A stretch of DNA of 64,000 nucleotides from Thermoplasmata archaeon (GTDB taxonomy: Archaea; Thermoplasmatota; Thermoplasmata; UBA10834), in assembly GCA_041559015.1 (NCBI GenBank), contig JBFFED010000002.1, forward strand, positions 1,027 to 65,026, given 5' to 3'. A program made the translations under genes and the position numbers. The notes beneath the pieces are model-generated. The model was not told where the DNA came from and ran no database searches. It saw only the letters and a list, made by a program, of their open reading frames with translations. Below are positions 1,397-62,410 of the stretch, one piece after another (the stretch's first letter is position 1; each line of letters starts with the position of its first letter).

Positions 1397-2183
1397 GAGC
1401 CTCAGGGACCTCAAGCGGAACACCGAGATGCTGATCCTGGTTGAGCTTGTCGAGTCCCCGGCCGTGAAGCTCAAGGAAATCTCCAAGAACTTGGGCATAA
1501 CGGTCCAGGCAGTCAGCCAGTACATCGCCGCAATGAAGCGAGAGGGGCTCGTCAAGGGCTCGGGCGGCAAGCTGAAGCCGACCAGGCGCGGGATGCAGAT
1601 GCTGCAGGAGCATTTCACAGGCCTGAAGCACGAGGTCGACGGGATACTCCGCAGAATCAGAGTGGTCGACACCTGCGTGTCCATCGCGGCGAAGAGGATA
1701 GCCAAGGGCCAGAAAGTCGGGCTCGAGATGGAGGACGGTATCCTCATGGCCTTCCCAAACAAGAAGGCAGCATCGACGGGCGTCGCGCTGGAGTCCTCGG
1801 AAGAGGGCGATGACCTGCTCGTCGGCCAGCTCGAGGGGATAGTGGACATGGAGCTTGGCAGGCTCCTGGTCGTCGAGGCGCCCCCCGAGTCCGAAGGCGG
1901 CTCCAAGAGCGCGAGCGTAGAGACCGTCAGGGGCAGGATAGACGACTTCTCCCCGGGGCTGCTGGTCGCGGGCGACACGACCGGGGCAGCGCTGCTCATG
2001 AAGGCGGCCGGTGAGATGTTCACGCTGCACGCGCCAGTGGAGTCAGCCATGAGCGCGCTCAGCAAGGGTGTGGATGTCGTGTTCTGTGGCGCGAGGGAAT
2101 CCGTCGACCGGATGCTTGATGCCGTTTCCGAACTCAGGAGTGAGACGGGGTACGAGATAAAGTGGCGCTCGTACAAGGCGTGA
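1386..2183 (+). CDS. Archaeal winged-helix transcriptional regulator (COG1497-like)
   Basis: N-terminal HTH LKEISKNLGITVQAVSQYIAAMKREGLV. Confidence 0.75.
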   Translation: MSGKSLRDLKRNTEMLILVELVESPAVKLKEISKNLGITVQAVSQYIAAMKREGLVKGSGGKLKPTRRGMQMLQEHFTGLKHEVDGILRRIRVVDTCVSIAAKRIAKGQKVGLEMEDGILMAFPNKKAASTGVALESSEEGDDLLVGQLEGIVDMELGRLLVVEAPPESEGGSKSASVETVRGRIDDFSPGLLVAGDTTGAALLMKAAGEMFTLHAPVESAMSALSKGVDVVFCGARESVDRMLDAVSELRSETGYEIKWRSYKA

Positions 2184-2241
2184 GCGGAAATCGGGGTCAA
2201 GATTTAATGGCATCTTGTCGATTCGACACTCCGGTGATCCC

Positions 2242-2808
2242 TTGGAAGTGGTAGAGGCCATCAGGGCCAGGAGGGCCAAGAGGGTTCTAGATGCCAGGCC
2301 GGTCGAAGATGATAAGATCGCGGCGCTCATCGAGGCCGCGAGGCTGTCAGCATCTTGCTTCAACAACCAGCCCTGGCGGATAGTCATATGCAAGGGGCCG
2401 GAGGCGCTCGGGCAGGTCAAGAGCACTCTCTCGAAGGGCAATGTGTGGGCCACGCGGGCGCCTGTGATCATGGTCGTCGCGGCGAGGCCACCCGATGACT
2501 GCCAGCTGAGCGAAAAGAGGGACTACTTCCTATTCTCGACAGGACTTGCGATAGGGCAGCTGGGGCTCAGGGCTACGGAGCTGGGATTGATAGCGCATCC
2601 CATCGCAGGCTACAACCCACAGAACGCGAAGGCCCTTCTCGGCATCCCGGAGGACTTCGTGGTCATAACATACGTCATAGTCGGCTACCCGGGCACGGAT
2701 GACTCCCTGCTCTCGGACAAGCAGAAACAGACCGAGTCGGTCAGGCCAGAGAGGAAGCCGGTCGGCGAGAACTTCTACCTCGACAGATGGGGTGCCCCGT
2801 TCAGCTGA
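2242..2808 (+). CDS. Nitroreductase family protein
   Basis: RRAKR, AARLSASCFNNQPW motifs; TTG start after GGTGA. Confidence 0.85.
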   Translation: MEVVEAIRARRAKRVLDARPVEDDKIAALIEAARLSASCFNNQPWRIVICKGPEALGQVKSTLSKGNVWATRAPVIMVVAARPPDDCQLSEKRDYFLFSTGLAIGQLGLRATELGLIAHPIAGYNPQNAKALLGIPEDFVVITYVIVGYPGTDDSLLSDKQKQTESVRPERKPVGENFYLDRWGAPFS

Positions 2809-2936
2809 ACTAGAGTCTGGATACAGGGGGGCCGTGACGCAGATGCACTCTGTGATGGTCTGCGCGGCGCCGTGACTGTGGCCTGCCGGAAATCAAATGC
2901 CTTATAGGCCGGTACGGTATACTCGATTCCGGGGAC

Positions 2937-3218
2937 GTGACTGCCGTGGAAGAGCTGGCCCTGGGCCTCCTGCTGATCATTTCAGCGTTCTTCCTAGCTC
3001 TCGCCCTGATGTCCTACAGGCGGAGCGGCGTCAGGGCCATCATATGGGTGTCTCTCGCCCTCTCAGCCCATGTCGGGGCGACCCTGCTCATGGTGGCCGC
3101 TATCATCGTCAACAGTTCCGTAGACGACGCGACCCGGCTCTACATGGTCATCGCTGACGCGGCCGCCCTCGCGCTGATCCTCGCCTTGGGGATCGTGGGG
3201 GGAAGGCGAAGTGGATGA
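2937..3218 (+). CDS. Small 3-TM membrane protein upstream of HTH regulator
   Basis: Three hydrophobic segments; overlaps the start of the next gene. Confidence 0.6.
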   Translation: MTAVEELALGLLLIISAFFLALALMSYRRSGVRAIIWVSLALSAHVGATLLMVAAIIVNSSVDDATRLYMVIADAAALALILALGIVGGRRSG

Positions 3219-3795
3219 CCCTCTCCAGCTCGAGAACAGGAAGCGCATATTCGAGTGCGTGAGGAGCAACCCCGGCCTCCACTTCAGGGAGATACAACGC
3301 AGGATCAACATGCCAATCGGCGTCCTCGACTACCATCTCAACTACCTGGCCCAGAAGGGTATCGTCGTGGTGAGGAAGCAGGAGGGTTTCTCGCGGTACT
3401 ATCCCGGAGGACATATCACGGCTGAGAAGATGCGGCTCCTGTCATGCCTCAGACAGGAGATACCCAGGGGCATCATGCTCTACCTCCTGAGGAACCCGGG
3501 GGCGACGCACGGGCAGATCCTGGCCAGGTTCTCAGTCTCCGGTGGCACGCTCTCGTACCATATCAAGAAGATGTTGTCACTCGGCGCGATCAAGGTCGAG
3601 AAGAAGGGTAGGGAGTCGCATTTCAGCGTGGTCGACCCTGTGGCGGTGACTGACCTCCTGATAGTCTACAGGAGGACGTTCCTGGACAAGCTGGTCGATG
3701 ACTTCGTCGCAGTTCATTCCATGGGGGCCGAGAGTGAAGACGCACGGGCGGTACCTTCGCGCGCGGAGAGCAGCGAGGTCAAGAACAGCGATTGA
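3211..3795 (+). CDS. Double winged-HTH regulator (COG3398/ArsR-like)
   Basis: NPGLHFREIQRR...LDYHLNYL and NPGATHGQI...LSYHIKKM repeats. Confidence 0.85.
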   Translation: MDDPLQLENRKRIFECVRSNPGLHFREIQRRINMPIGVLDYHLNYLAQKGIVVVRKQEGFSRYYPGGHITAEKMRLLSCLRQEIPRGIMLYLLRNPGATHGQILARFSVSGGTLSYHIKKMLSLGAIKVEKKGRESHFSVVDPVAVTDLLIVYRRTFLDKLVDDFVAVHSMGAESEDARAVPSRAESSEVKNSD

Positions 3796-3803
3796 GGACC
3801 GCT

Positions 3804-5051
3804 CTAGTCACGTCCGCCCTTGTAGTATCTGTTGTTCTCCAGGGTCACTGTCTCAGCGGGGTCATCCTTCCCCCTGCGGGAGATGTACAGCGCGCTGACG
3901 CCGCTACCGATGACGGCGCCGCCTACGAGGATCCCCGCGGCGACGGACATGACGGATGAGCCGAATATCCCACCGTCCTCAGGAGGTCGGATCACTCCGC
4001 CATCGCCTCCTCCGGTCGCGGCCGACGCGAAGATGCCCAGGCTGGGATCCAGCGAGATTGCGGCCACGTCCCTGTCTATCGGCGATGAGAGGTAGAGTCT
4101 GAGGCACTCTCCGTCCGTGCCGTAGTGCGCGGTCGAGTCGGCAAGTGAGCTGTTTCCGGCCGACCAGTTCAGCATTATCTTGTTCGCCCAGGCGAAGTAG
4201 CCCATGGGCACCCCGTCCTCGACGAACGCGAACATCTGTTCCTCGGTCTGCCGGTACTGGAACTTGTGCACGATCGGTGAGGTGCCGTTCGTCTCGTTCA
4301 CGGCAGGGTCGCTGGTGGTGACGCCACTTGACTGATAGCCATAGAACCGATATGGTTCGTCGCTTGGCGCGATGACCATGCTGCCTGCCTCCATCACGCA
4401 CAGGTTCATCTCGACCGCAAGCCTGTTGACATAGATCATCTTGTTGAGCCTCAACACCATGTCGAACTTCATCTCCGTGGACCCGTTGACGTCGATCTGA
4501 TGGTCGGAGAACCCGGGATAGGCTGCAACCCGGTTGTCTGTTGATACCTGGAATGTGAACTGGACCTCTGCCCACTCATGGATGATTTCGACTCCTGGCT
4601 GAGCAGTGGTGCCAGTGCCGGTGGTGCTCCCCGGGAGGCGCTTGGTCATGTCGACCACCGCCCTCAGGGCGACTGTCACCGCGCTGCCCTTCTCACTGGT
4701 CGTCTTCGAGGGACCTACGACCTCCCAGGAGACGCCCTCCAACGAAGCCTGATATGCCCAGTCGGCGAAGGGATTCTCAGCGGTCTCGCTCACATTGTAG
4801 CCGATGAATGAGGAGACCGTGAAGCCGTATCCGTTGCCCGAGGAATCATCGGCCGCCCGAATCATGCCTGATGGCTGGAGCTTCGAGATGTCGATGGTCG
4901 CGTTCTCAGTCGCGATGGTGATGCCGTCAGCATCCTCATCATATACGATATCCATCTCCGTGGCGTCCGCTGGGAAAGACGGTAGTGCCGAACCGGCGGC
5001 GAACAGCAAGAATGCTGTTCCGATGGCCGCCAGAACCCATCGTGCGAGCAT
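3804..5051 (-). CDS. Secreted, C-terminally membrane-anchored surface protein
   Basis: Signal-like MLARWVLAAIGTAFLLFAAGSA; C-terminal TM helix and short basic tail. Confidence 0.7.
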   Translation of the reverse strand: MLARWVLAAIGTAFLLFAAGSALPSFPADATEMDIVYDEDADGITIATENATIDISKLQPSGMIRAADDSSGNGYGFTVSSFIGYNVSETAENPFADWAYQASLEGVSWEVVGPSKTTSEKGSAVTVALRAVVDMTKRLPGSTTGTGTTAQPGVEIIHEWAEVQFTFQVSTDNRVAAYPGFSDHQIDVNGSTEMKFDMVLRLNKMIYVNRLAVEMNLCVMEAGSMVIAPSDEPYRFYGYQSSGVTTSDPAVNETNGTSPIVHKFQYRQTEEQMFAFVEDGVPMGYFAWANKIMLNWSAGNSSLADSTAHYGTDGECLRLYLSSPIDRDVAAISLDPSLGIFASAATGGGDGGVIRPPEDGGIFGSSVMSVAAGILVGGAVIGSGVSALYISRRGKDDPAETVTLENNRYYKGGRD

Positions 5052-9016: not shown

Positions 9017-11764
9017 ATGGCGAGACTAGCCCTCTCCTCGAATGAGCGCCTGCTGCTCCATCTCATGGAGATGGACAGGTTCAGGGACGACGCTGAGGTG
9101 CCCCTGGCCGCAAGCCAGGAGGGCATCGCGCAGAGGCTCCAGGTGCAGGTGCACAACGTGTCGAGGGCCCTTTCGTCTCTGGAGTCAGAAGGCTTAGTGT
9201 CGGACCGGCTCGCCCACATAAGGGGCGCTCCCAAGAGGCGCAGGGCGTACTTCCTTACGGAGAAAGGCAAGGCGACGGCCCAGTCCATCAAGTCAGATGT
9301 GTTGAAACGTCTCGTGGTGGTCGAATCAGAGGGCACGGCTAGGCAGATGCCGTTGGAGGAAACCCTCAGGATGATATCGGCGAAGGTCGGCGTCACCCCG
9401 TCGCTCTCAGACGCGGTCGAGATCGCAGGCAGGAACGAGATCATCACCATCGAGGCTTTCGCCGGTGCCTCGAGACAGGCCCCCAAGCGCGAATTGCCGA
9501 TGTTGCAGCAGGGTCGCCCAAGGGTCGAGGCGTTCTTCGGAAGGGATGCCGAGGTCGGCAGTATCACGGAGGCGCTCTCCGGGAACTCCGCGAGCGCCGT
9601 GCTCATATGGGGCCTGCCCGGGATAGGCAAGAGCACGTTGGGGTCAAGGGTGTTCGAGGATCTTGCGGGCAAGCGGCCGCTCATGTGGTTCACCTTCAGG
9701 GACTGGGACACTGAAGCATCCTTCCTTGCCGCCCTGACTGAGTTCCTCGTGTCTGCGGGTCGCACAAAGACCTCAGCTGCCTTCAAGCGGGGTGCGGGGA
9801 CGGGGGAATTCTTCTCACCCCTGGTCGCCGACCTCACAGGGCTCGGAGCGGTCATGTTCGTGGACGACGCTCACAAGTCGGAGGGCCGCTGCTCAGCGAT
9901 CATATCAATGTTCGTCGAGGCTGTTGACGCTTCTCGCTCCTCCAAGGCGGTCCTGATGTCTCGCTGGGTGCTGCCCTTCTTCTCGAAATCCGCAGAGGGG
10001 CATGTCTCGCGCGAGCTGACAGGACTCGACAGGGATTCCGCCTGGAAGATGGCTCAGAGCCTGAATGCCAGGGACGGCATCCGCGTCGTCAGCGAGAGCC
10101 ACGGTCACCCTCTTCTATTGCGCATGCTGGCGCGCGCGGGTGCGTCAGGTGCGGCTGGTGACGTCGTCTCCTTTGTCGAAAGGGAGGTCAACTCATCGCT
10201 CACGGGACAGGAGAGGAGGATACTGGAGCTGATATCCATCTTCAGGCACCCGGTCAGCCTCAACGCGGTCGCGGAAGTAGACACAGGTTCAGTGGCGGGC
10301 CTGAGGGAGAGAGCGTTGGTCGTCGACCAAGAAGACGGCCTGTCGACGCACGACCTCCTGAGGGACTTCTTCTCGTCGCATCTGGGCGCTGATGAGAAGA
10401 CCGCACTCCATCGCAGAGCCGCAAAGTACTGCGGCGGCCGCGCGGGGATCGAGTGGAAGCTGGAGGCGCTCTACCATCATGTGGAGGCCGGAGACTGGTC
10501 TTCTGCCCGGCAGACTGCGATGTCGGGTGCTGACGATTTGTCGAAGGACTTCCCCGAGGAGACTCTATCCCTGATATCGAGGATACCGAAGCCGGAGAGT
10601 TCAGCACAGGATTACGCCGAGATCCTTTTCGTCAAGGGGCAGCTACAGGGGTCGCTCGGGAGGCTCGAGTCGGCCATGTCCGACTACGAGGAATGCCTTT
10701 CGTTGATAGGAGACGGCGAGCCCGCCAGGAGGGCAATCGCGCTCGAGGCGCTCGCAAGGCTTCACTCGCAGATCGACAGGGTCGCCGAGTCTCTGGCAGT
10801 GCATCAGGACGCCCTGCGCCTGTACGAGAATTCGGACGACAAGCAGGGTCAGATACGGGAGTGGCTCAGCACGGGCAGCGTGTACAGGAGAAGGGGGGAC
10901 CACGCTAAGGCCCGGGAGGCTTACACGCAGGCGTTGACGATCGCCTCCAAGGAGGAGGACCGAGCTGCTCAGGCCGCATGTCTGAACAACCTCGGGCTCC
11001 TCGACTGGGATGAGGGCAGGCTGCGAGACGCGGAGGTTCGGCTGAAGGAGTCGGTCAGGCTAGCGCATGTCATTAGGGACCATCTTGGGGAGGCCAGAGG
11101 CCTTGAGAATCTCGCAAGGCTCTCGGAGGTCCAGAACCGGTTGAGTGAGGTCCCCAACATGCTCCTGGAGTCCTCCGAGGCCTTCCGGAGGGCGGGGGAG
11201 ATATCAGAGTTCAAGAGGCTGCAGGCCGCGTGCGCCGAAGCGCTCGGAGCACAGGGGAGGTTCGAGGCGGCGGCGGAGATATGTGTTAGGGGCCTGGAAC
11301 GGCCGGAGTTTCGCAGGAGGAAGGGTCTGTTCCAGAGGTCTCCCGTGTTCGACTTCGGCGACCTAGCGCTGTCCTCAGCGCTCATCGACGTCCTTCGCGA
11401 GTCAGGGGACCGAAGGCGCGCCCAGAAGGAACTCTCAAGATACCATTCGATGGCGTCTGCCATCGGGGACGTGAGCCAGGTCGCCAAGGGGAAGCTGCTG
11501 GCCTCCATGGTCAACGAGGATTCGGGAGAACTCGAAGCGGCCGTGAGGAGCCTCGAGGAGGCCAAGACGCTCCTCAGAGCCGCTGGCAACCATGACGGCC
11601 TGATAGCCGTGCACATGCGCCTCGGGATGATCGAAGAGAAGATGGGGGACTACGAAGCGGCCGGGTTGAACTACAAGGAGGCCGCCAGGCACGCGGAGGT
11701 GGTCGGGGACAAGCACGCTCAGTCCCTGGCCCTGGAGAACCTCGCCTCGGCAAAGAAGGAATGA
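9017..11764 (+). CDS. wHTH + STAND P-loop NTPase + TPR protein
   Basis: N-terminal HTH; GLPGIGKST Walker A; MFVDDAH Walker B; GHPL motif; TPR-like repeats (ACLNNLGLL). Confidence 0.85.
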   Translation: MARLALSSNERLLLHLMEMDRFRDDAEVPLAASQEGIAQRLQVQVHNVSRALSSLESEGLVSDRLAHIRGAPKRRRAYFLTEKGKATAQSIKSDVLKRLVVVESEGTARQMPLEETLRMISAKVGVTPSLSDAVEIAGRNEIITIEAFAGASRQAPKRELPMLQQGRPRVEAFFGRDAEVGSITEALSGNSASAVLIWGLPGIGKSTLGSRVFEDLAGKRPLMWFTFRDWDTEASFLAALTEFLVSAGRTKTSAAFKRGAGTGEFFSPLVADLTGLGAVMFVDDAHKSEGRCSAIISMFVEAVDASRSSKAVLMSRWVLPFFSKSAEGHVSRELTGLDRDSAWKMAQSLNARDGIRVVSESHGHPLLLRMLARAGASGAAGDVVSFVEREVNSSLTGQERRILELISIFRHPVSLNAVAEVDTGSVAGLRERALVVDQEDGLSTHDLLRDFFSSHLGADEKTALHRRAAKYCGGRAGIEWKLEALYHHVEAGDWSSARQTAMSGADDLSKDFPEETLSLISRIPKPESSAQDYAEILFVKGQLQGSLGRLESAMSDYEECLSLIGDGEPARRAIALEALARLHSQIDRVAESLAVHQDALRLYENSDDKQGQIREWLSTGSVYRRRGDHAKAREAYTQALTIASKEEDRAAQAACLNNLGLLDWDEGRLRDAEVRLKESVRLAHVIRDHLGEARGLENLARLSEVQNRLSEVPNMLLESSEAFRRAGEISEFKRLQAACAEALGAQGRFEAAAEICVRGLERPEFRRRKGLFQRSPVFDFGDLALSSALIDVLRESGDRRRAQKELSRYHSMASAIGDVSQVAKGKLLASMVNEDSGELEAAVRSLEEAKTLLRAAGNHDGLIAVHMRLGMIEEKMGDYEAAGLNYKEAARHAEVVGDKHAQSLALENLASAKKE

Positions 11765-22617: not shown

Positions 22618-23091
22618 TCATTCCTCCACTTGTTCATAACCTTCCTTTCTGCCACCTGTTCCTCGCGTCTCCCCATGCTCCTGTGATCGAATGATCTCGA
22701 CAACGGCACGGCACTCTCTTTCGACGTCGTCGGTCGCGATTTCCCGCTCGCACAACACCCAACAGCTGTCGTGGTGGTCCAGGGAGTACCCTCTTTTTGC
22801 GAGGGTGTCGAGGACCTTGTTCACGCGTTCCAAGTCCGTCACCTTGGGCTGAGAGTCCTTCGCGAGGATACGCAGCGACACCTCTATCCGGAACGAGATC
22901 GAAGTGCCAGGGGCAGCGTTCACCACGAGCCCTAGTCGGAAATGCTCGCGGGCTGCCACAGCTCGGTATGCTTCGTGGTCCTCCGACGAGCGTGCCAGAG
23001 ATGCCAACGAGTCCAGGTCAGTCAGATTGAGGCCTTCACCCTTCGCTTCCGCCTCGCCCTGAGCCGTTCCTTCTGGTGGTCTGCCGGTCAT
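22618..23091 (-). CDS. Hypothetical protein
   Basis: 157 aa ORF coupled to downstream genes. Confidence 0.55.
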   Translation of the reverse strand: MTGRPPEGTAQGEAEAKGEGLNLTDLDSLASLARSSEDHEAYRAVAAREHFRLGLVVNAAPGTSISFRIEVSLRILAKDSQPKVTDLERVNKVLDTLAKRGYSLDHHDSCWVLCEREIATDDVERECRAVVEIIRSQEHGETRGTGGRKEGYEQVEE

Positions 23092-25798: not shown

Positions 25799-27127
25799 CT
25801 ACAACTCCTTCCTAGATGCGGTGCGTCTGAACACGGCCATGATGGCCATCAGGCCCGCCGCTGCACCGACGAGGGCGATCCCGGAGCCGAACTCAGGGAT
25901 CACCACCGAGTTCGTGGCATACTTGAGGGCGGAGTTCGTCGAGTCGTAGTAGCTTATGTGGACGCATCCGATGGAGTCCACCGCAATCGAGTTGTGCGGG
26001 CCGACCCACCCTGCGCTGTCTATCGTGTGGACCGCCCACGACCCTCCTGCGTTCGTGATGTACATGAGGTCTCCTGACGACTCGTTGGAGTAGCTTATGT
26101 GCACATTGTCATCCGCGTCCAAGGCGATGGAGGAGAACATGCCGACGTCGTTGGCAGGACCCAGGCCGTCGAGGGTGTAGTACTCCCACGAGCCACCTGC
26201 GTTGGTGGCATACTTGAGATCTTCGACAAGGACGCTGTAGTAGCTTATGTGGACATATCCATTCGTGTCCACCGCAATCGAGGTGCCCTTGCCGACATCG
26301 CCGCCAGTGTCGAGAGTCAGTTTCGTCCATGAACCTCCTGCGTTCGTGGCGTACATCAGATCCTGGGCGATGGCGCTGTAGTAGCTTATGTGGATGTTGT
26401 TGCCAGCATCCACAGCGATTGAAGTGTACTTGCCCCTGTCTACGCTAAACGATCCGTCCACTTGGCTCTGGACCACCCACGAGCCCCCGGAGTTGTTGGC
26501 GTAGTTCAGGCTCATCGTCGAGCCGTCATAGTAGCCTATGTGGACGTGGTCATTGGAGTCCACCGCGATGGAGGAGAACATCCCCACTGTCCCCGCACTG
26601 TCTATCGTGTAGTTCTGCCACGTGCCACTGGCGTTCGTGGCGTAGTTGAGGTCGCCGGCCGTGGAGTTGAGATAGCTTATGTGGACGTTGTCATTGGAGT
26701 CCAGGGCGATCGATGCGTACGTGCCCACGGCCCCGTCGTCGTTCAGCGTCTGGTATCCCCACGCGCCCCCGGCGTATGTCGCATACATCAAATACTGGTT
26801 ACCGGAGGGTACTGGGTAGTTGCAGTAGGCTATATGCGGATAGTTCTCCGAGTCCACAGCTATAGAGGTGAACCAGCCAGAGTTCGCCGAGTTGTCCACT
26901 ATCTCCGAGCCCCAGCCGGGGGGAGCCTCCGACGGCATCGCCCGTCTTGTGGACTCGTTGGAATTGAAGGCAAGGACACATAGCGCGATGACCAGTACCG
27001 CGGCCAAGGCCACGGCGGCTACCGGGACCACGGTTGGGTGTCTCCTGCCTCTTGGTGTTGTTGCGTTCGTTGCGCGTGAACCGCTGCCAGGATGAAGGCT
27101 ACGATCGATTGCATGTGGCGAAATCAA
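25799..27127 (-). CDS. Surface beta-propeller protein with PEF-CTERM sorting signal
   Basis: Seven SIAvD-x4-HIsY repeats; C-terminal IPEFGSGIALVGAAAGLMAIMAVFRR; start uncertain. Confidence 0.8.
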   Translation of the reverse strand: MISPHAIDRSLHPGSGSRATNATTPRGRRHPTVVPVAAVALAAVLVIALCVLAFNSNESTRRAMPSEAPPGWGSEIVDNSANSGWFTSIAVDSENYPHIAYCNYPVPSGNQYLMYATYAGGAWGYQTLNDDGAVGTYASIALDSNDNVHISYLNSTAGDLNYATNASGTWQNYTIDSAGTVGMFSSIAVDSNDHVHIGYYDGSTMSLNYANNSGGSWVVQSQVDGSFSVDRGKYTSIAVDAGNNIHISYYSAIAQDLMYATNAGGSWTKLTLDTGGDVGKGTSIAVDTNGYVHISYYSVLVEDLKYATNAGGSWEYYTLDGLGPANDVGMFSSIALDADDNVHISYSNESSGDLMYITNAGGSWAVHTIDSAGWVGPHNSIAVDSIGCVHISYYDSTNSALKYATNSVVIPEFGSGIALVGAAAGLMAIMAVFRRTASRKEL

Positions 27128-30385: not shown

Positions 30386-30459
30386 GTGGACCGGGCGAGC
30401 ATTGAACTCGCTCGAGCCAGACAATCATAAAACCGTCTCAATTAAAAAGAAAATGCACC
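30386..30459 (-). repeat. tRNA-Ala 3'-end copy + conserved cassette end (att-like copy 2)
   Basis: 30386-30411 matches tRNA 36740-36765 at 24/26 nt; followed by the 17-mer extension, 19 nt, and tcaattaaaaagaaaatgcacc. Confidence 0.85.
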
Positions 30460-36737: not shown

Positions 36738-36812
36738 TGGTGGACCGGGCGAGATTTGAACTCGCGACCTCTCGCATGCCAAGCGAGCGATCTGCCGCTG
36801 ATCTACCGGCCC
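36738..36812 (-). tRNA. tRNA-Ala(GGC), CCA encoded
   Basis: Cloverleaf GGGCCGG/CCGGTCC with G3-U70; anticodon arm CTCGC-TTGGCAT-GCGAG; T arm GCGAG-TTCAAAT-CTCGC. Confidence 0.97.
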
Positions 36813-44160: not shown

Positions 44161-45996
44161 CTAGGCCAGGTCCAGCTCCTTCATCTTCTCCGGTGTGGGC
44201 TCCCCGTCATGGGTCCACCCGCGGGACTTCATGTAGTCGTCGAGCATCGTGTTCATCTCCTCGACGGATATCTTCGAGCCCTTGGAGACGCCCTCGGGTA
44301 TCGGGTCCTCGAGCACCCTCGGGGGCAACAGCCAGTCCTTCCTCGTCACACCTTCCCGGTGGTTGAAAGCGCCCTTCATGTTGTGGACCCTCTCGCCTAT
44401 CTTCAGGAGCTCCTCCTCGGTGAACTTCAGGCCGGTTATGGCCTCTAACACCTCAGGCAGCTTGGCGATCAGGTAGAATCCCCTCGAGAACTTGCACAGC
44501 CCGACTGAGTCGTAGACGCACATGAAGTTCTCCATCGTGGCGACCATCTCGCCCTTGCCTGCGGTCGAGAACCTGTCGATGCCCTCCCACTTCCAGAACT
44601 TGCCCACGAGCTCGGGCGCGTAGAACCCCGCCCTCAGGTGGCATGCCCCTCTCGTGGAGGTCATGTACGCGAGCCCGTGCCCTTTCATGCCCCTGACATC
44701 GTACGCAGGAGGCTCCATGCCCTTCGTGTGGATGGCGTACCTCTCGGAGCCCTTGCCTATCCTCTGCGCGGCCACCTTGACGCCGTCCGCGAGCCCCTCG
44801 CCGAAGCCCTTCCTGTTGCCGATCATCTCGACCATCTTCGGCACTGCGTCAGAGGCGTTGCTCCAGGAGAGGTCGAGCCCCACCTCATCCTTTGTGATTA
44901 TCCCGCGCTGGTACAGCTCCATCGCGAAGCCTATCGTGACCCCGCATGAGATGGTGTCCAGGCCTAGGAGGTCGCACAGCTCGTTCGCCTTCGCGACGCT
45001 CTCGACATCCGAGTTGCCGCAGGTCCCCCCGAGGGAGTACAGCGTTTCGTACTCGATGCCGTCTATCGCCACGCCCGCGAACTTGCCCGACTCGACCTCG
45101 AACAGCTTCCCGCACGGCTTGGTGCACGCGAAGCAGGCCTTGTTCTTGGAGACGTACTTCGGAGCCCAGTAGTACGGGTCTATCTTCTCGCGCTCGTTGA
45201 ACACGCTCTCCTGCCAGTTCCGGGTCGGGAAGACTCCCCTGTCCTTGTTTATCCAGCCCAGGAACTCGCCGGTGCCGTACTTCGTGTCCTCGACGAACGA
45301 CGGCGCCGCCTCGTACACCTTCTGGTACTGGAGCGCCAGCTGGAGGAGCTTGTCCGGGTCCGCGGGGACCAGGTCCTTCGTGCCCCTGATGACTATGGCC
45401 TTGAGCATCTTCGAGCCCATGACCGCTCCGAGGCCTCCCCTGCCGGACTGCCGGTCCTCGCAGTCGATGCCAGCCATCCGGGAGAGCTTCTCGCCCGCGA
45501 CGCCTATGCACGCGACCTTGACGTCCCAGCCGTGGCGCTTCTTGAGTATCTCCGGGACCTCCCTGGTGTCCTTACCCCAGAGGTCTCTGGCCTCCAGGAT
45601 CTCGACCTTCTCGTCCTCTATCCACAGATAGACCGGCTCGTCCGACTTGCCGACTATCTCGAGCGCGTCGTAGCCCGCGTGCCTGAGCTCAGGCCCGATC
45701 GATCCGCCCATGATGCTCTCCGCGAGGCCGCCGGTCGCGGGCGACTTCGCCGCGAAGGCGACCTTGCCACCAGTGCCCACAGGGAACCCGTCGAACGCGC
45801 CGCCCGCAATCGCGAACACGTTGTCCGCGCCGAAAGTGTCCGCTCCAGGGGGCATGTCGTGGTACACTATCTGTACCGCGAACCCCTGTCCTCCGAGGTA
45901 CTTGCGGGCGTACTTCTCGTCGAAGGTCCGCTCGCTCGACTTCCCCTCGCTCAGGTCGACCTTGAGTATCTTGCCAGTGTATCCCTTCATGGTCAT
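44161..45996 (-). CDS. aor: Aldehyde:ferredoxin oxidoreductase (W-pterin family)
   Basis: GKILKVDLS, KSPATG, GRGGLGAVMGSKMLKAI, CFACTKPC, GLDTIS, RGACH. Confidence 0.92.
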   Translation of the reverse strand: MTMKGYTGKILKVDLSEGKSSERTFDEKYARKYLGGQGFAVQIVYHDMPPGADTFGADNVFAIAGGAFDGFPVGTGGKVAFAAKSPATGGLAESIMGGSIGPELRHAGYDALEIVGKSDEPVYLWIEDEKVEILEARDLWGKDTREVPEILKKRHGWDVKVACIGVAGEKLSRMAGIDCEDRQSGRGGLGAVMGSKMLKAIVIRGTKDLVPADPDKLLQLALQYQKVYEAAPSFVEDTKYGTGEFLGWINKDRGVFPTRNWQESVFNEREKIDPYYWAPKYVSKNKACFACTKPCGKLFEVESGKFAGVAIDGIEYETLYSLGGTCGNSDVESVAKANELCDLLGLDTISCGVTIGFAMELYQRGIITKDEVGLDLSWSNASDAVPKMVEMIGNRKGFGEGLADGVKVAAQRIGKGSERYAIHTKGMEPPAYDVRGMKGHGLAYMTSTRGACHLRAGFYAPELVGKFWKWEGIDRFSTAGKGEMVATMENFMCVYDSVGLCKFSRGFYLIAKLPEVLEAITGLKFTEEELLKIGERVHNMKGAFNHREGVTRKDWLLPPRVLEDPIPEGVSKGSKISVEEMNTMLDDYMKSRGWTHDGEPTPEKMKELDLA

Positions 45997-58796: not shown

Positions 58797-58889
58797 TGCA
58801 AGCCGCTCGTAAGCCCCCGGCGTTATATGGTAATTCTGGTCCTATTCCTATATAACCGGGTGCCTCATTCCTACCCCGAGGTCAGGGAC

Positions 58890-59168
58890 ATGGTGAAATG
58901 TTCGAGATGCGGCCGTTCCATGGGGGAGGCTGAGACGTGCCCTCATTGCGGCTCAGGCCCGAGCAGGAGCGTGCTCGACAAGGGCGTGGTGAAGGTCGCG
59001 AAGGCCACGGGGACGGCCCTCGAGGTCGGCGTCCAGATAACCGAGAAGGTCGTCCAGGACGCGAAGCCGGTCGTGAAGAGCGTCCTGAAGGAGAGCAGGA
59101 AGGGCATCAAGAAGGCCAGGGACGGGACGCTGAAGGTCGCGAAGTCGCTCAGGGATGAGGAGAAGTAG
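58890..59168 (+). CDS. Small Zn-ribbon + helical protein
   Basis: CSRCG...CPHCG followed by a basic amphipathic helix. Confidence 0.65.
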   Translation: MVKCSRCGRSMGEAETCPHCGSGPSRSVLDKGVVKVAKATGTALEVGVQITEKVVQDAKPVVKSVLKESRKGIKKARDGTLKVAKSLRDEEK

Positions 59169-59337
59169 GCCCGGTCACTCAGCCCGTCCGAGACGGCACA
59201 GACGATCTCCTCTGGGGAATAGTCTACTTGGCTGGTGTAAGCGCGTAGGTCGTCCAGGCGTAGCAGGATCTGGTCTGTATCTGGCCAGGGTCTTGCAGGA
59301 CTAGCCTTCCAGCTTGACTGCGAAAAGACAATAGAGA

Positions 59338-59778
59338 TTGAAACGCCATCCGTCGACTCGTGAGTCCATGGTCCCCAAGAAGGTTGCCAGAAAGGAGTTC
59401 TTCTCCTTTCTCGATTGCCCCAGAAACGTAGGCAAAGATCAAATCACGGATACGATTGTGATGTCCGTCGAGTTCATGAAATATCAGGCGGAAGTCACCT
59501 ATCAGGTCAGCAAGAGTCTTGCGATCTCGATCACCTCGACCGCCTCGACCATCGGGGTCGGATGGTCAGCATTCTTCTTCGGGATCTCGCAGGAATCCTG
59601 GGTCACGTCAAGTCTCGGCCTCATGATGGTATTTGCCGGGACCTTCTTCCTGGCGTTCTGGACCCCAAGGATCATGGACAAGGCAAGGACGGGGCTTGAG
59701 GAACTCGGGGCTGCTAAGTTTTGCGACAAGTGGCTCTCGAACGCGTCAAGGATCGAGGGGGTCGACAAGAGCCTATGA
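59338..59778 (+). CDS. Hypothetical 2-TM protein (accessory)
   Basis: Two hydrophobic segments; start uncertain (ATG at 59368 possible). Confidence 0.5.
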   Translation: MKRHPSTRESMVPKKVARKEFFSFLDCPRNVGKDQITDTIVMSVEFMKYQAEVTYQVSKSLAISITSTASTIGVGWSAFFFGISQESWVTSSLGLMMVFAGTFFLAFWTPRIMDKARTGLEELGAAKFCDKWLSNASRIEGVDKSL

Positions 59779-59975
59779 ATCGGAAGAGAGGGCACGAGCG
59801 CGACGGAACGAACCGGCGCCCTTCCTCGGCAGTAGTCGGTCATGACCGTCCTTCATCTTCCAGGTACATGGATTCTGTTCAGTATCCTCGAAGTCCTGAA
59901 GAGGGACTATTGTCGAAACCCGCAGGAGGTGCTGGCCGCACACCATGCTCGTGTGCCTCCTCATGAAGGAGTTGC

Positions 59976-60464
59976 TCAGGCCGAAACCTGCCTGAACCCC
60001 CGGGTGTAAAGAAGGAACGAATCCACAACAAGGGCAGCCCCAAGCACTGCGATAAGAGTCAACCCCAAGTCGAACGCGCTCAGGTCGACGAGCTGGTTGA
60101 CGATCCCTAGGAATATCAAGTAGGAGCCTGCTATGACCTCCACAGCGATGTACAGGGCGGGCAGTACCGAGGGAGAGGGAGGGGATCGAATAATCCATTC
60201 ACGACTGCTGCGGAACGATGCAATCGTGAGAACCACTCCGAAGATGATAGCCACGGACGCGTACAGTATCGCGTCTTCGATTAGTCCAGACCCCAGAGCA
60301 ATCATGCCGGCCCCGAGGATGAGTAGCAGGAAAGTGGCAATTGCAGGATTGTCCACGACGTCAAACAATCGAGGCTTCCTTATAACGATTCTGGTATTGC
60401 CCCTTGATGGGCGACTACTTACTGACAATGGAATTCGCGAACACTCTGGCTCGAGCGAGTTCAA
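59976..60464 (-). CDS. Hypothetical 4-TM protein (accessory; true start probably downstream)
   Basis: Four hydrophobic segments; the track start lies inside the att-like motif. Confidence 0.5.
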   Translation of the reverse strand: MNSLEPECSRIPLSVSSRPSRGNTRIVIRKPRLFDVVDNPAIATFLLLILGAGMIALGSGLIEDAILYASVAIIFGVVLTIASFRSSREWIIRSPPSPSVLPALYIAVEVIAGSYLIFLGIVNQLVDLSAFDLGLTLIAVLGAALVVDSFLLYTRGFRQVSA

Positions 60465-60477
60465 TGCTCGCCTGGTC
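60445..60477 (+). repeat. att-like copy 3, inverted relative to copies 1-2, over a stop codon
   Basis: Reverse complement gaccaggcgagcattgaactcgctcgagccaga matches 30389-30421 at 32/33 nt. Confidence 0.85.
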
Positions 60478-62410
60478 TTCTCTTACCATGAACCTTCGTC
60501 TTCCTCGTCGAGGCTTTCCCCGCCAGCTTGTCGAAGTAGTGCGCGACCACGCAGCTATCCGCGCACTTGCCACAGCGCGTGCACGCGCGGTCGTCGACGG
60601 TGATGCGGTCCTCTAGCTTGATCGCGCGCTGAGGACAGGTCCTGACGCATATGCCGCACTTCGCGCACATGTTCGCCCTCAGGACAGCCCTCGCGACCCT
60701 GTCGAAGTACTTCGTAGCGTCCTCGGGCGTCTTCCCGACGGAAGATACCTGCCCTCCAACGAAGACCTTGGCGTCCGCGTCCTTGGAGCGCACCATCGCG
60801 ACCCCGAAGTCCTCGACCAGGTTCACATCGCCGACTGTCTTGAGCAGCTCGGATATCTCCTGGAGGCCTCTCGTCTCAGGCATCCTCAGCACGGCCTCGA
60901 CTGAGTATCCGCCTGCGGTGCACGGGCTGACCCCTTTGATGACATGCAGCTCCAGGGTGTCGGCCCTCTTCGGCCTCGCCTCCATCCCCAGCCTGTCGGC
61001 GAGGGCGCGCATCTTGGGCGGGAGCTGCTTCCACCGCCAGAAGCCATATTGGACGAACTGCCTCGGGAGGCCGTTCTCTGCCGCCCACGAGTGCAGTCTC
61101 TGCTCCCACGCCTTCGCCAGCTCGGGGCTCATGCGGGATATCTCCGCGCACTCGCTCGCGAGCGCGGAGGGGCACATCCAGCACCCCACCCTCTCGATGT
61201 CCTCGTCGTAGAGTGGGTTGTACCTGAGGCCCCGCCAGAGTATGTAAAGCCAGACATCGAGCGCCGTCCAGCCCCTTATCAGGTTGGCCACCATCTGTCT
61301 GGGCACGAACGGGTTCCTCTCGATCAGCTCCAGCCTCGATCGTGAGAATGATTCCAGCCTGCGGTTCCCCTCGACCGTGAGAGTGCCGTCGGGGAACGAC
61401 TCCTCGACGGCCTTCGCTGCCGGGGCGAGCTTGCAGACCTTGCAGCACCATCTGAAGTCCTTCGCGGGCGGCCCGAAGGCGGGGAAGTTGTCATCGAACG
61501 CGTCTCCCGCGGGGGCGGTGACGAGCCTGAGCGAGTTCTCCTTCGCGAACCTCTTAACGTAATCCCTGGTTTTCGGATGTTCGAGGCCGGTGTCCACGAA
61601 GATGGCGGTGAAGTCCTTGGTGACCGACGACACCAAGTCCAGGACCACCAGGCTGTCCTTGCCTCCGCTGAAGGAGACTGACAGCAGGAGGCCGCTCCTG
61701 GACATCGCGTCCTTCAGCTCGTGCTCCGCCTTGGCCTTCTTCGCCATCAGGTGCGGCAGGTTCGCCTTAATCAGGTCCTTCGGCCACGCCCTCTTCCCGG
61801 GCCTGAGCGGCCCGGACTGCGTGATGTCCCTGACCTTCACGCCCTTGGCGGAGTTCCTCAGCTCGGCCGCGTTCACTTTGGCGCTCCCGCAGCCGATGAA
61901 CTTGCCCATCTGCACGATCACCTCATCCCCGGCGCTGATGCCCGGGTCGAAGGACGAGATGTACTCCTTCGGGACGTAATTGCCCTTCATGTGCCCGTCC
62001 GTCTTGTTGAGCAGAATCTCCTTCTTGGGGCGCATGCGCGCGAGCATGCGCGCACCGTCTATCCTCAGGGTGAGGCGGTAGTCTGCCCGCTCGAGGTCGT
62101 AGCTCAGCAGGGCGATCCTCCTGCCGTCCACTATCACCTCCTCGGCCCTGTCCTCTCCCGAGGTCTTGTTGAGGACAGTGATATCCGGTATGAGTTGCTG
62201 AACGCCAAACTGTCGCAGGAAGAGATACCTGAGCCTCCTCTTGGTGCCCTCGAGCGCCAGCCGGACTTCCCCCGGCGGAGAGAGATCTATCTCCCGGCCG
62301 TTGTGTCCGCACCTCCCGCATGTCATACCAATCAGAGGCACGTTGCAGCTGTCGCACCAGTGAAGCGTGGGTGCGTGGTGATGGCGCTGAATCCTCACGA
62401 GTCGAAGCAA
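60461..62410 (-). CDS. PAPS-reductase-family protein with Zn-ribbon, PUA-like and C-terminal 4Fe-4S domains
   Basis: WCDSCN, SFSGGKDS, WCCKVCK, RVGCWMCP, CAKCGICVRTCP, CTRCGKCADSC; start may be GTG 62398. Confidence 0.85.
   Translation of the reverse strand: MLRLVRIQRHHHAPTLHWCDSCNVPLIGMTCGRCGHNGREIDLSPPGEVRLALEGTKRRLRYLFLRQFGVQQLIPDITVLNKTSGEDRAEEVIVDGRRIALLSYDLERADYRLTLRIDGARMLARMRPKKEILLNKTDGHMKGNYVPKEYISSFDPGISAGDEVIVQMGKFIGCGSAKVNAAELRNSAKGVKVRDITQSGPLRPGKRAWPKDLIKANLPHLMAKKAKAEHELKDAMSRSGLLLSVSFSGGKDSLVVLDLVSSVTKDFTAIFVDTGLEHPKTRDYVKRFAKENSLRLVTAPAGDAFDDNFPAFGPPAKDFRWCCKVCKLAPAAKAVEESFPDGTLTVEGNRRLESFSRSRLELIERNPFVPRQMVANLIRGWTALDVWLYILWRGLRYNPLYDEDIERVGCWMCPSALASECAEISRMSPELAKAWEQRLHSWAAENGLPRQFVQYGFWRWKQLPPKMRALADRLGMEARPKRADTLELHVIKGVSPCTAGGYSVEAVLRMPETRGLQEISELLKTVGDVNLVEDFGVAMVRSKDADAKVFVGGQVSSVGKTPEDATKYFDRVARAVLRANMCAKCGICVRTCPQRAIKLEDRITVDDRACTRCGKCADSCVVAHYFDKLAGKASTRKTKVHGKRRPGEH

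Follow-up and report, generated by a model that had tools for sequence, protein, structure and literature searches.

How a conserved protein-coding gene comes to end inside a sequence that resembles the T arm of a tRNA is the question raised by the DNA analysed here, a stretch of 64,000 nt from a Thermoplasmata archaeon (assembly GCA_041559015.1, contig JBFFED010000002.1, positions 1,027 to 65,026; hereafter the window). The last codons of a PAPS-reductase-like gene on the minus strand, CCA GGC GAG CAT TGA, overlap a 33-nt core sequence, TCTGGCTCGAGCGAGTTCAATGCTCGCCTGGTC, which is the reverse complement of a second sequence in the window at 32 of 33 positions (one mismatch), as a first-pass annotation had reported. 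The same annotation correctly placed across the gene end a hairpin with the stem GCGAG (60455-60459), the loop TTCAATG (60460-60466) and the stem CTCGC (60467-60471); the loop holds the stop codon of the gene, which reads TCA on the plus strand (60461-60463). Comparison with relatives fixes the boundaries, the exact size and the flanking repeats of an insertion at this locus together with its empty site, and links the core at its right-hand end to a sequence family with an integrase-bearing member. The features in question are collected in Table 1.

Table 1. Features of the locus, of the tRNA-Ala array and of the parent element (positions in the window unless a locus is named).
Feature	Position	Strand	Basis
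Zinc-ribbon gene, 113 aa, conserved left host flank, C-terminus intact	58827-59168	+	Pfam Zn_ribbon_3, weak; orthologue in 19/19 relatives
Left junction repeat GCCCGGTCA (attL overlap)	59169-59177	.	native 6-nt spacer and stranded native stop
Inserted DNA, 1301 bp including the right-hand repeat, integrase-less cassette	59178-60478	.	relatives' empty locus, reconstruction
Cargo open reading frame, 136 aa, hydrophobic	59368-59778	+	no family match
Cargo open reading frame, ~132 aa, hydrophobic, apparent membrane protein	59976-60374	-	no family match
Cassette-end core, 33 nt (P side of attP and overlap), T-arm mimic inside	60445-60477	+	core pattern, repeat pairs, nhmmer
Right junction repeat GCCTGGTCT (attR overlap); minus strand encodes Arg-Pro-Gly	60470-60478	.	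junction reconstruction
PUA / PAPS-reductase-like / 4Fe-4S gene, PRK13795 family (uncharacterised), conserved	60461-62410	-	Pfam, NCBIfam
Partner core in a full module of the tRNA-Ala array, tRNA-distal end of the PHA cassette	30389-30421	-	repeat pairs, nhmmer
tRNA-Ala(GGC), natural attB of the family; 3' part GCGAGTTCAAATCTCGCCCGGTCCACCA	36738-36812	-	tRNA call, repeat comparison
Intact parent element	L033 (G010:C110:62000-69000) 1908-4860		related loci L059 (G018), L063 (G009)

The insertion and the rewritten gene end

The zinc-ribbon gene and the PAPS-reductase-like gene are directly convergent in all 19 relatives fetched for comparison of the locus (same genus or family as the genome under study, G000, which is 88% complete), with stop codons that abut, overlap or lie a few nt apart, and both small open reading frames (ORFs) that separate the two genes in the window are missing from this locus in every one of them. 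The suggestion that relatives might lack 59.2-60.4 kb and join the flanking genes directly is hereby borne out. Three other assemblies of the same species (two metagenome-assembled genomes and one independent Logan contig) carry the insertion at 99.86-99.89% identity, which shows it to be real, fixed in the species and no assembly artefact. GC content is 55.0% within it and 61.5% in the flanks.

Among the many joins tried in order to reconstruct the empty site, only 59177|60479 agrees with the relatives in every respect. It aligns without gaps to the loci of the two closest relatives, L011 (76/105 nt) and L010 (75/105 nt), which match each other at 91/105 nt, and yields a protein of 644 aa ending ...HGKR*, the same length as in L010 and L011 from the same aligned start. 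It also reproduces the layout of L011, in which TAG is followed by a 6-nt spacer (GCCCGG here, GCCCCG in L011) and TCA, and it sets the distance from the FDKL motif to the zinc-ribbon stop at 54 nt, the value of most same-genus relatives (51-54 nt overall). The join 59168|60470 is rejected, as the gene would then have no stop (718 aa). The joins 59181|60470, 59189|60473 and 59189|60470 give the plausible tails RRPG*, RRPGRAE* and RRPGGRAE*, yet they introduce gaps relative to L010 and L011 and disrupt the spacing between the FDKL motif and the zinc-ribbon stop; the reading of the tail as a 'GRAE*' fossil is rejected in favour of the 59177|60479 reconstruction.

The junctions so defined carry imperfect 9-bp direct repeats, GCCCGGTCA on the left and GCCTGGTCT on the right, identical at 7/9 positions, and we estimate the chance of a 7/9 match at a fixed offset at ~2e-3. 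The left end accordingly lies at this repeat, and not at 59194 or ~59282, where it had been sought at first; CACAGACGA at 59196, which recurs at the 30386 junction, has no part in the reconstructed junction. Neither terminal inverted repeats nor a transposase domain (Pfam) was found in the insertion, and an insertion sequence or a miniature inverted-repeat transposable element is rejected on these grounds. A target-site duplication is set aside as well, given that the flanking repeat is the recombination core of the family described below and not a copy of an arbitrary target.

The consequence for the host gene can be read directly from the right-hand repeat. The native stop is now stranded at 59175-59177 (TCA; TGA on the minus strand), and on the minus strand at the right junction TGA is replaced by AGA, followed by CCA GGC from the overlap, GAG CAT from the T-stem mimic and, as the new terminal codon, a TGA that the T-loop mimic supplies in antisense. 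The present protein is 649 aa long and ends ...HGKR-RPGEH*, with R-P-G contributed by the overlap and E-H by the T-stem mimic. It had been asked whether the tail ...RRPGEH is native and whether the host C-terminus is left or rewritten: the five residues RPGEH are not native, for the reconstruction and L010/L011 end at 644 aa, and the C-terminus has been rewritten through displacement of the native stop.

The core repeat and the tRNA-Ala(GGC) arrays

With a 25-nt core pattern, searched at up to 3 mismatches in the window and in 45 genomes of the family, three matches are obtained in the window where none is expected (100 shuffles), and the reversed pattern, used as a control, gives no match in the 45 genomes. 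The one credible tRNA nearby in the window is tRNA-Ala(GGC), whose 3' part GCGAGTTCAAATCTCGCCCGGTCCACCA is 92% identical to 30386-30411, and beside it lies an array of accessory genes (29.05-36.7 kb) in which GC content falls from ~0.61 to ~0.52. The array holds an isochorismatase gene and then a polyhydroxyalkanoate (PHA) synthase set (phaC, phaE, two short-chain dehydrogenases/reductases (SDRs) and a hydrolase); no integrase was found in it. Each block of the array bears on its tRNA-distal side a T-arm-like core together with a conserved arm of ~65 nt, and the right end of the insertion is the core seen in this array, as the first-pass annotation had held in calling it the same cassette end. 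A genome-wide nhmmer search with a 110-nt module profile recovers eight full modules (two on contig C2, one on C6, four on C28 and one on C31), a degenerate one on C10, 1 kb behind tRNA-Pro(CGG), and two copies of the core only, at 60445-60477 and at C55:192-228. The family thus numbers ~11 copies in the genome, all at cassette boundaries. The 33-nt core at 60445-60477 equals the family consensus, and only ~31 nt of the profile are aligned there (E = 1.4e-4).

Throughout the genus and the family the full module is retained, typically arranged as rows that follow tRNA-Ala(GGC). In the complete genome G001 modules lie 9.5 and 18.9 kb from tRNA-Ala, in G015 three modules follow one another in ~2.4-kb steps with the nearest ~2.9 kb from the tRNA, and modules distal to cassettes behind tRNA-Ala occur also in G004 and others. 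Close copies of the core number 0-1 in most relatives and 8 in the studied genome. The native trailer of the tRNA gene can be seen in genomes whose tRNA-Ala is unoccupied, and it recurs beyond the outermost module of the arrays. The sequence family is anchored at tRNA-Ala(GGC) in the studied and in many related genomes, where it delimits, on the side distal to this tRNA gene, the integrase-less gene cassettes that are stacked behind it. The T-loops of the modules (TTCAATG or TTCAAGG) and of the tRNA (TTCAAAT) are not the same, so that the natural crossover has to be placed on the 3' side of the loop, within CTCGCCCGGTCCAC; this segment recurs at the 59.2-60.5 kb insertion. The left junction repeat contains GCCCGGTC of tRNA-Ala(GGC) at 8/8 positions, that is, the T-stem/acceptor segment where the family recombines.

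An intact parent element is found in the relative G010, in which tRNA-Ala(GGC) is followed directly by a 396-aa tyrosine recombinase, three small ORFs and a module, 2.9 kb in all. The recombinase (L033:1983-3173) matches PF00589 (E = 1.7e-13), and its best NCBIfam match, below the cut-off, is archaeal XerA-like. The sequence directly after tRNA-Ala, CTCACGCATAGCCAGACAAATATTTTTCCGTTTCAATTAAA (the P' arm of the G010 element), recurs after tRNA-Ala in G009 and G018. Because CTCACGCATAGCCAGACAAATATTTTTCCGTTTCAATTAAA corresponds to the module arm in inverted form, the intact attachment site of the element (attP) has palindromic arms around the tRNA-like core, and in attP sites of the G010 type these are inverted repeats of ~32 nt (TTAATTGAAC...TGTCTGGC / GCCAGACA...GTTTCAATTAA). 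An integrative element family that targets tRNA-Ala(GGC) is widespread in the studied archaeal family.

Further copies and remnants show the range of contexts that these sequences occupy. The core-only copy at C55:192-228, GGCCTGAGCGAGTTCAATGCTCACC, is devoid of the 65-nt arm and lies between the gene at the start of the contig, whose stop precedes it by 12 nt, and a catalase gene 170 nt downstream, which is present in 6 of 26 relatives with a different upstream context each time. At C10:44552-45640, tRNA-Pro(CGG) is accompanied by a faint integrase remnant (44681-44803) and by the degenerate module ~1 kb away, in which the arm is conserved and the tRNA-like part differs (GGGTGCGATTCCCACCGGGCCCA); on the evidence of this sequence, sub-families with other tRNA mimics are suggested. 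A full module and a single flavodoxin gene lie directly behind tRNA-Leu(CAG) at C31:22034-22968, and as the Ala-type T-arm mimic is kept and the distal flank is not the 3' end of tRNA-Leu, this cassette too is off its cognate tRNA. At C28:12396-22096 four full modules in a row separate unrelated cargo (a 1104-aa TPR-like protein, an SDR, a major facilitator superfamily transporter and an 809-aa surface protein); there is no tRNA on this contig, and the array probably runs past the contig end. At C52:1900-2200 the C-terminal part of an integrase survives as a remnant (43% identity with that of G010 over 93 aa), adjoined by P'-arm-like sequence (CTATGCATAGCCAGGCAATCG...GGTCAATCAGG) and with no neighbouring tRNA. 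Finally, another type of T-arm-like fragment, GCGAGTTCAATTCTG, occurs in the G001 locus L029 (G001:C1:1285500-1297500) at ~2060-2140 and 11590-11680, ~80 nt from the tRNA-Ala gene and from the first module, which may be the trace of another element family at the same hot spot.

Probable secondary-site integration and its alternatives

The reading that we favour, at a probability of about 0.7, is that an integrase-less cassette of the tRNA-Ala(GGC)-targeting family was integrated at a secondary, non-tRNA site through its attP, with a tyrosine integrase acting in trans. It follows from the coincidence that GCCCGGTC, contained in the target, is the very segment of tRNA-Ala where the family recombines. 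The cassette would have existed as a circle, with an attP whose left half would be the T-arm mimic ...TCTGGCTCGAGCGAGTTCAATGCTC, followed by the overlap GCCYGGTCY, an imitation of the T-stem end and the acceptor 3' strand of tRNA-Ala, and by CTCAGCC... to the right of the overlap; the circle junction would accordingly read ...CAATGCTC-GCCYGGTCW-CTCAGCCC.... The secondary chromosomal site (attB) would be GCCCGGTCA, that is, the 6-nt spacer and the stop codon between the convergent genes (pseudo-attB GAGAAGTAGGCCCGGTCATCTCTTACC). A tyrosine integrase of the family, presumably supplied in trans, would then catalyse a conservative exchange in which the native overlap, including the native stop, passes to the left junction and the element version GCCTGGTCT to the right, the mismatch in the overlap being resolved in favour of the host at the left junction and of the element at the right. 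With the element overlap at the right junction, the PAPS-reductase-like gene has lost its stop and reads five more codons. The site is not a tRNA gene, in accord with the proposal that a non-tRNA site can be used. The accompanying proposal that the target gene itself mimics the T arm does not hold: the pre-insertion site resembles the T-stem end and acceptor 3' strand over only ~9 nt (GCCCGGTCA), and the mimic arrived with the element, as the P side of its attP, so that the gene now simply ends within it.

Several observations weigh against this reading. All four species assemblies have the insertion, and they show no polymorphism that would indicate recent mobility. The overlap repeats mismatch at 2 of 9 positions, and GCCCGGTC is present 116 times in the genome, so that the 8-mer alone is insufficient to account for site choice. 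The 65-nt conserved arm, present in all eight full modules, is absent beside the studied core (nhmmer), and neither a P arm nor a P' arm was found inside the insert (nhmmer; P'-arm motif at the left end); if arm sites are required, the attP is defective or was later remodelled. No PF00589 match occurs within 59178-60478, an integrase being found only in relatives' elements such as that of G010, and for this reason the element is classed as an integrase-less derivative, not as autonomous, within a tRNA-targeting tyrosine-integrase family of non-suicidal, lambda/pNOB8-like layout. In the studied genome itself, the only G010-type integrase sequences are the remnants at C52:1914-2192 and C10:44681-44803 (beside tRNA-Pro), and there are in addition one more PF00589 fragment, at C46:1314-1445 beside tRNA-Val, and a likely XerA.

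The main rival, which we regard as unlikely and as less likely than integration by an integrase, is an illegitimate event in which microhomology-mediated repair joined a linear cassette-end fragment, derived for instance from arrays of the same genome or from DNA entering the cell, into a break between the two genes through 8-9 nt of chance homology. It would dispense with the integrase and the P arm that the insert lacks, and the short, imperfect repeats and the commonness of GCCCGGTC speak for it. It does not account, however, for the homology falling exactly on the crossover segment of the family, immediately 3' of the T-stem mimic, for an exchange that is fully conservative, with no base gained or lost relative to the spacing in relatives, or for a right end that stops precisely at the family core. 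The core might instead be all that is needed in cis. In its broader form, this idea has the 25-33-nt T-arm-like core as the only cis requirement and a recombinase in trans (the element integrase or XerA) inserting cassettes at tRNA-Ala or at pseudo-sites of the GCCCGGTC type; we hold it to be doubtful, and core-alone, integron-like cassette traffic finds little support, since core-only copies within the 3-mismatch limit occur only in the studied genome, hits in G047 and G053 left aside. In its narrower form, the core would be a self-sufficient site for a host recombinase such as the XerA-like protein encoded on C32, much as Xer is exploited at dif by bacterial elements. The two core-only copies in the genome (60445-60477 and the one before the patchy catalase gene on C55) and the lack of an integrase in most cassettes speak for it, but no core-only copy outside the studied genome is confirmed in the 45 genomes, where 9 of 11 core matches are known full modules and the remaining two are those in G047 and G053. 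Moreover, the core, with its 5-6-bp arms and 7-nt loop, departs from the 11-6-11 layout of dif sites, and there is a parent element with an integrase; such use of a host recombinase is improbable.

An ancestral origin of the segment, followed by loss in the relatives, is highly improbable even though all four assemblies of the species have it, for 19 lineages would have had to lose it precisely, with an ungapped junction and a stop codon regained every time; the GC content lies 6.5 points under that of the flanks, and the cargo occurs elsewhere in other contexts. Equally hard to credit is a generic terminator-like hairpin, or inverted copies that mark the breakpoints of a 30-kb inversion, to which the position of the hairpin at a gene end and the near-identical inverted copies 30 kb apart might point. 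A terminator or an RNA gene is rejected: no terminator is predicted at the hairpin, no T-run follows it, Rfam gives no match, and the fold is weak (-5.1 kcal/mol, z = -1.2). The common terminator-like repeat that the first-pass annotation had named as its own refutation is likewise at odds with a family of so few copies, each at a cassette boundary. As to an inversion, the PAPS-reductase-like gene and tRNA-Ala have the same order and orientation as in G001, at a distance of 21.6 kb there and 23.6 kb here, and on account of this synteny nothing has been inverted.

Cargo, known systems and implications

The description of the cargo as two inward-lying orphan membrane-protein ORFs is correct inasmuch as neither has a match in Pfam, NCBIfam, PHROGs or PADLOC, but they are not strict orphans, as both have patchily distributed homologues among 48 genomes of the order. 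Those of the 136-aa ORF (58-62% identity) occur only in the genus members G004, G006 and G007 (3/48), in the last of these directly 3' of tRNA-Leu(CAA), and those of the 132-aa ORF (32-45% identity) in six other genomes, including G018, where the homologue lies 0.6 kb from tRNA-Glu. Nothing convincing in the way of att-like repeats was found around the homologues in G007 and G018. Gene callers extend the 132-aa ORF to 162 aa (start 60464), overlapping the core; this call is probably too long, because alignments with the homologues begin no earlier than residue 15 of the 132-aa form. A TTATAA box on the minus strand, ~25 nt upstream of the GTG at 60374 (within 60375-60444), suggests that this gene is transcribed without a leader from a promoter of its own. 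Elsewhere in the window, the tRNA-Lys(TTT) called by ARAGORN at 22766-22849 (84 nt, anticodon at position 31) resembles coding DNA in sequence and is probably a false positive, and tandem repeats at 25943-26870, with periods of 291 nt and 141/150 nt and 60-82% identity, sit in an apparent long repeat-domain gene on the minus strand.

Bacterial genomes harbour cis-mobilizable elements (CIMEs), which undergo tandem accretion at sites of the ICESt1/ICESt3 type. Like CIMEs, the cassettes described here have att sequences on both sides and no recombination or transfer genes, their cognate integrase resides in related elements, they stack at a tRNA gene, and they derive from an integrase-bearing relative, by which they could presumably be moved. 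Unlike CIMEs, the host is an archaeon, the units are very small (1.3-6 kb), and the copy studied is found away from the array, at a site other than a tRNA gene. The resemblance to integron cassettes and their attC sites consists in promoter-poor or single-gene units, each with a terminal imperfect-palindrome site, beside a fixed entry point. The entry point differs in being a tRNA gene, no IntI-type integrase or attI was found beside the array in the genome, and the G010 integrase scores 40.4 bits against an integron-integrase cut-off of 265. As to an attC-type bottom-strand substrate with R and L boxes, what the core forms is a stem of 5-6 bp with a 7-nt loop.

The closest precedents are the secondary att sites of lambda, the relaxed specificity of SSV1 and the 'gene capture' model of She, Chen and Chen 2004 (reviewed in PMC8371274). 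In common with integration of tRNA-targeting elements at secondary att sites, the attP of the element imitates the tRNA 3' part, the target shares only a short, mismatched overlap, and the likely outcome is DNA trapped in the chromosome. The present case departs from these examples in that the pseudo-site is a spacer and a stop codon, the stop is swapped and a conserved protein gains five residues, and in that the insert has neither an integrase nor an attP arm. The tycheposons of Prochlorococcus form tRNA-anchored cargo arrays with partial tRNAs (10.1101/2020.12.28.424599) and also share integration at tRNA genes with cargo, the outward displacement of older units by newcomers and integrase-poor, degenerate remnants; the sites named for them there are tRNA and tmRNA genes. 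They belong to another domain of life and another integrase lineage, and the partial tRNA here is limited to a T-arm and acceptor mimic, with a 65-nt conserved arm in full copies. The pTN3 integrase of Thermococcales is reported to recombine with low specificity and to yield chromosomal inversions (PMC5495485). It too is an archaeal integrase that works on short tRNA-derived sequences off its cognate site, but the event here, judged by synteny with G001, was a simple insertion without inversion.

Archaeal elements are documented to use secondary att sites, to enter protein genes, to integrate in tandem and, on losing the integrase, to end in gene capture (PMC8371274). The probable off-target integration described here is of this known kind, unusually clean, and needs no new mechanism; what is special to it is the spacer and stop-codon target between convergent genes, the five-residue rewrite of a protein end and the core-only att. 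Were the core self-sufficient for a host recombinase, integrase-less cassettes would move without any element integrase, and were it the only cis requirement, the result would be a tRNA-mimic-based, integron-like gene capture able to edit host gene ends, with the two core-only copies and the expansion to ~11 copies as footprints of core-driven traffic. Under integration by a family integrase in trans, which we prefer, overlap similarity over ~9 nt would have sufficed for capture. Insertion between abutting convergent genes was tolerated. The locus offers a defined substrate pair, tRNA-Ala and the pseudo-attB GTAG-GCCCGGTCA-TCT, for the specificity of an uncharacterised Thermoplasmata integrase. 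For the organism, it adds a non-tRNA site to the integrase-less cassette arrays of the genome, and it would mean that an attP imitating a tRNA arm can give a host protein a new stop codon and a new tail.

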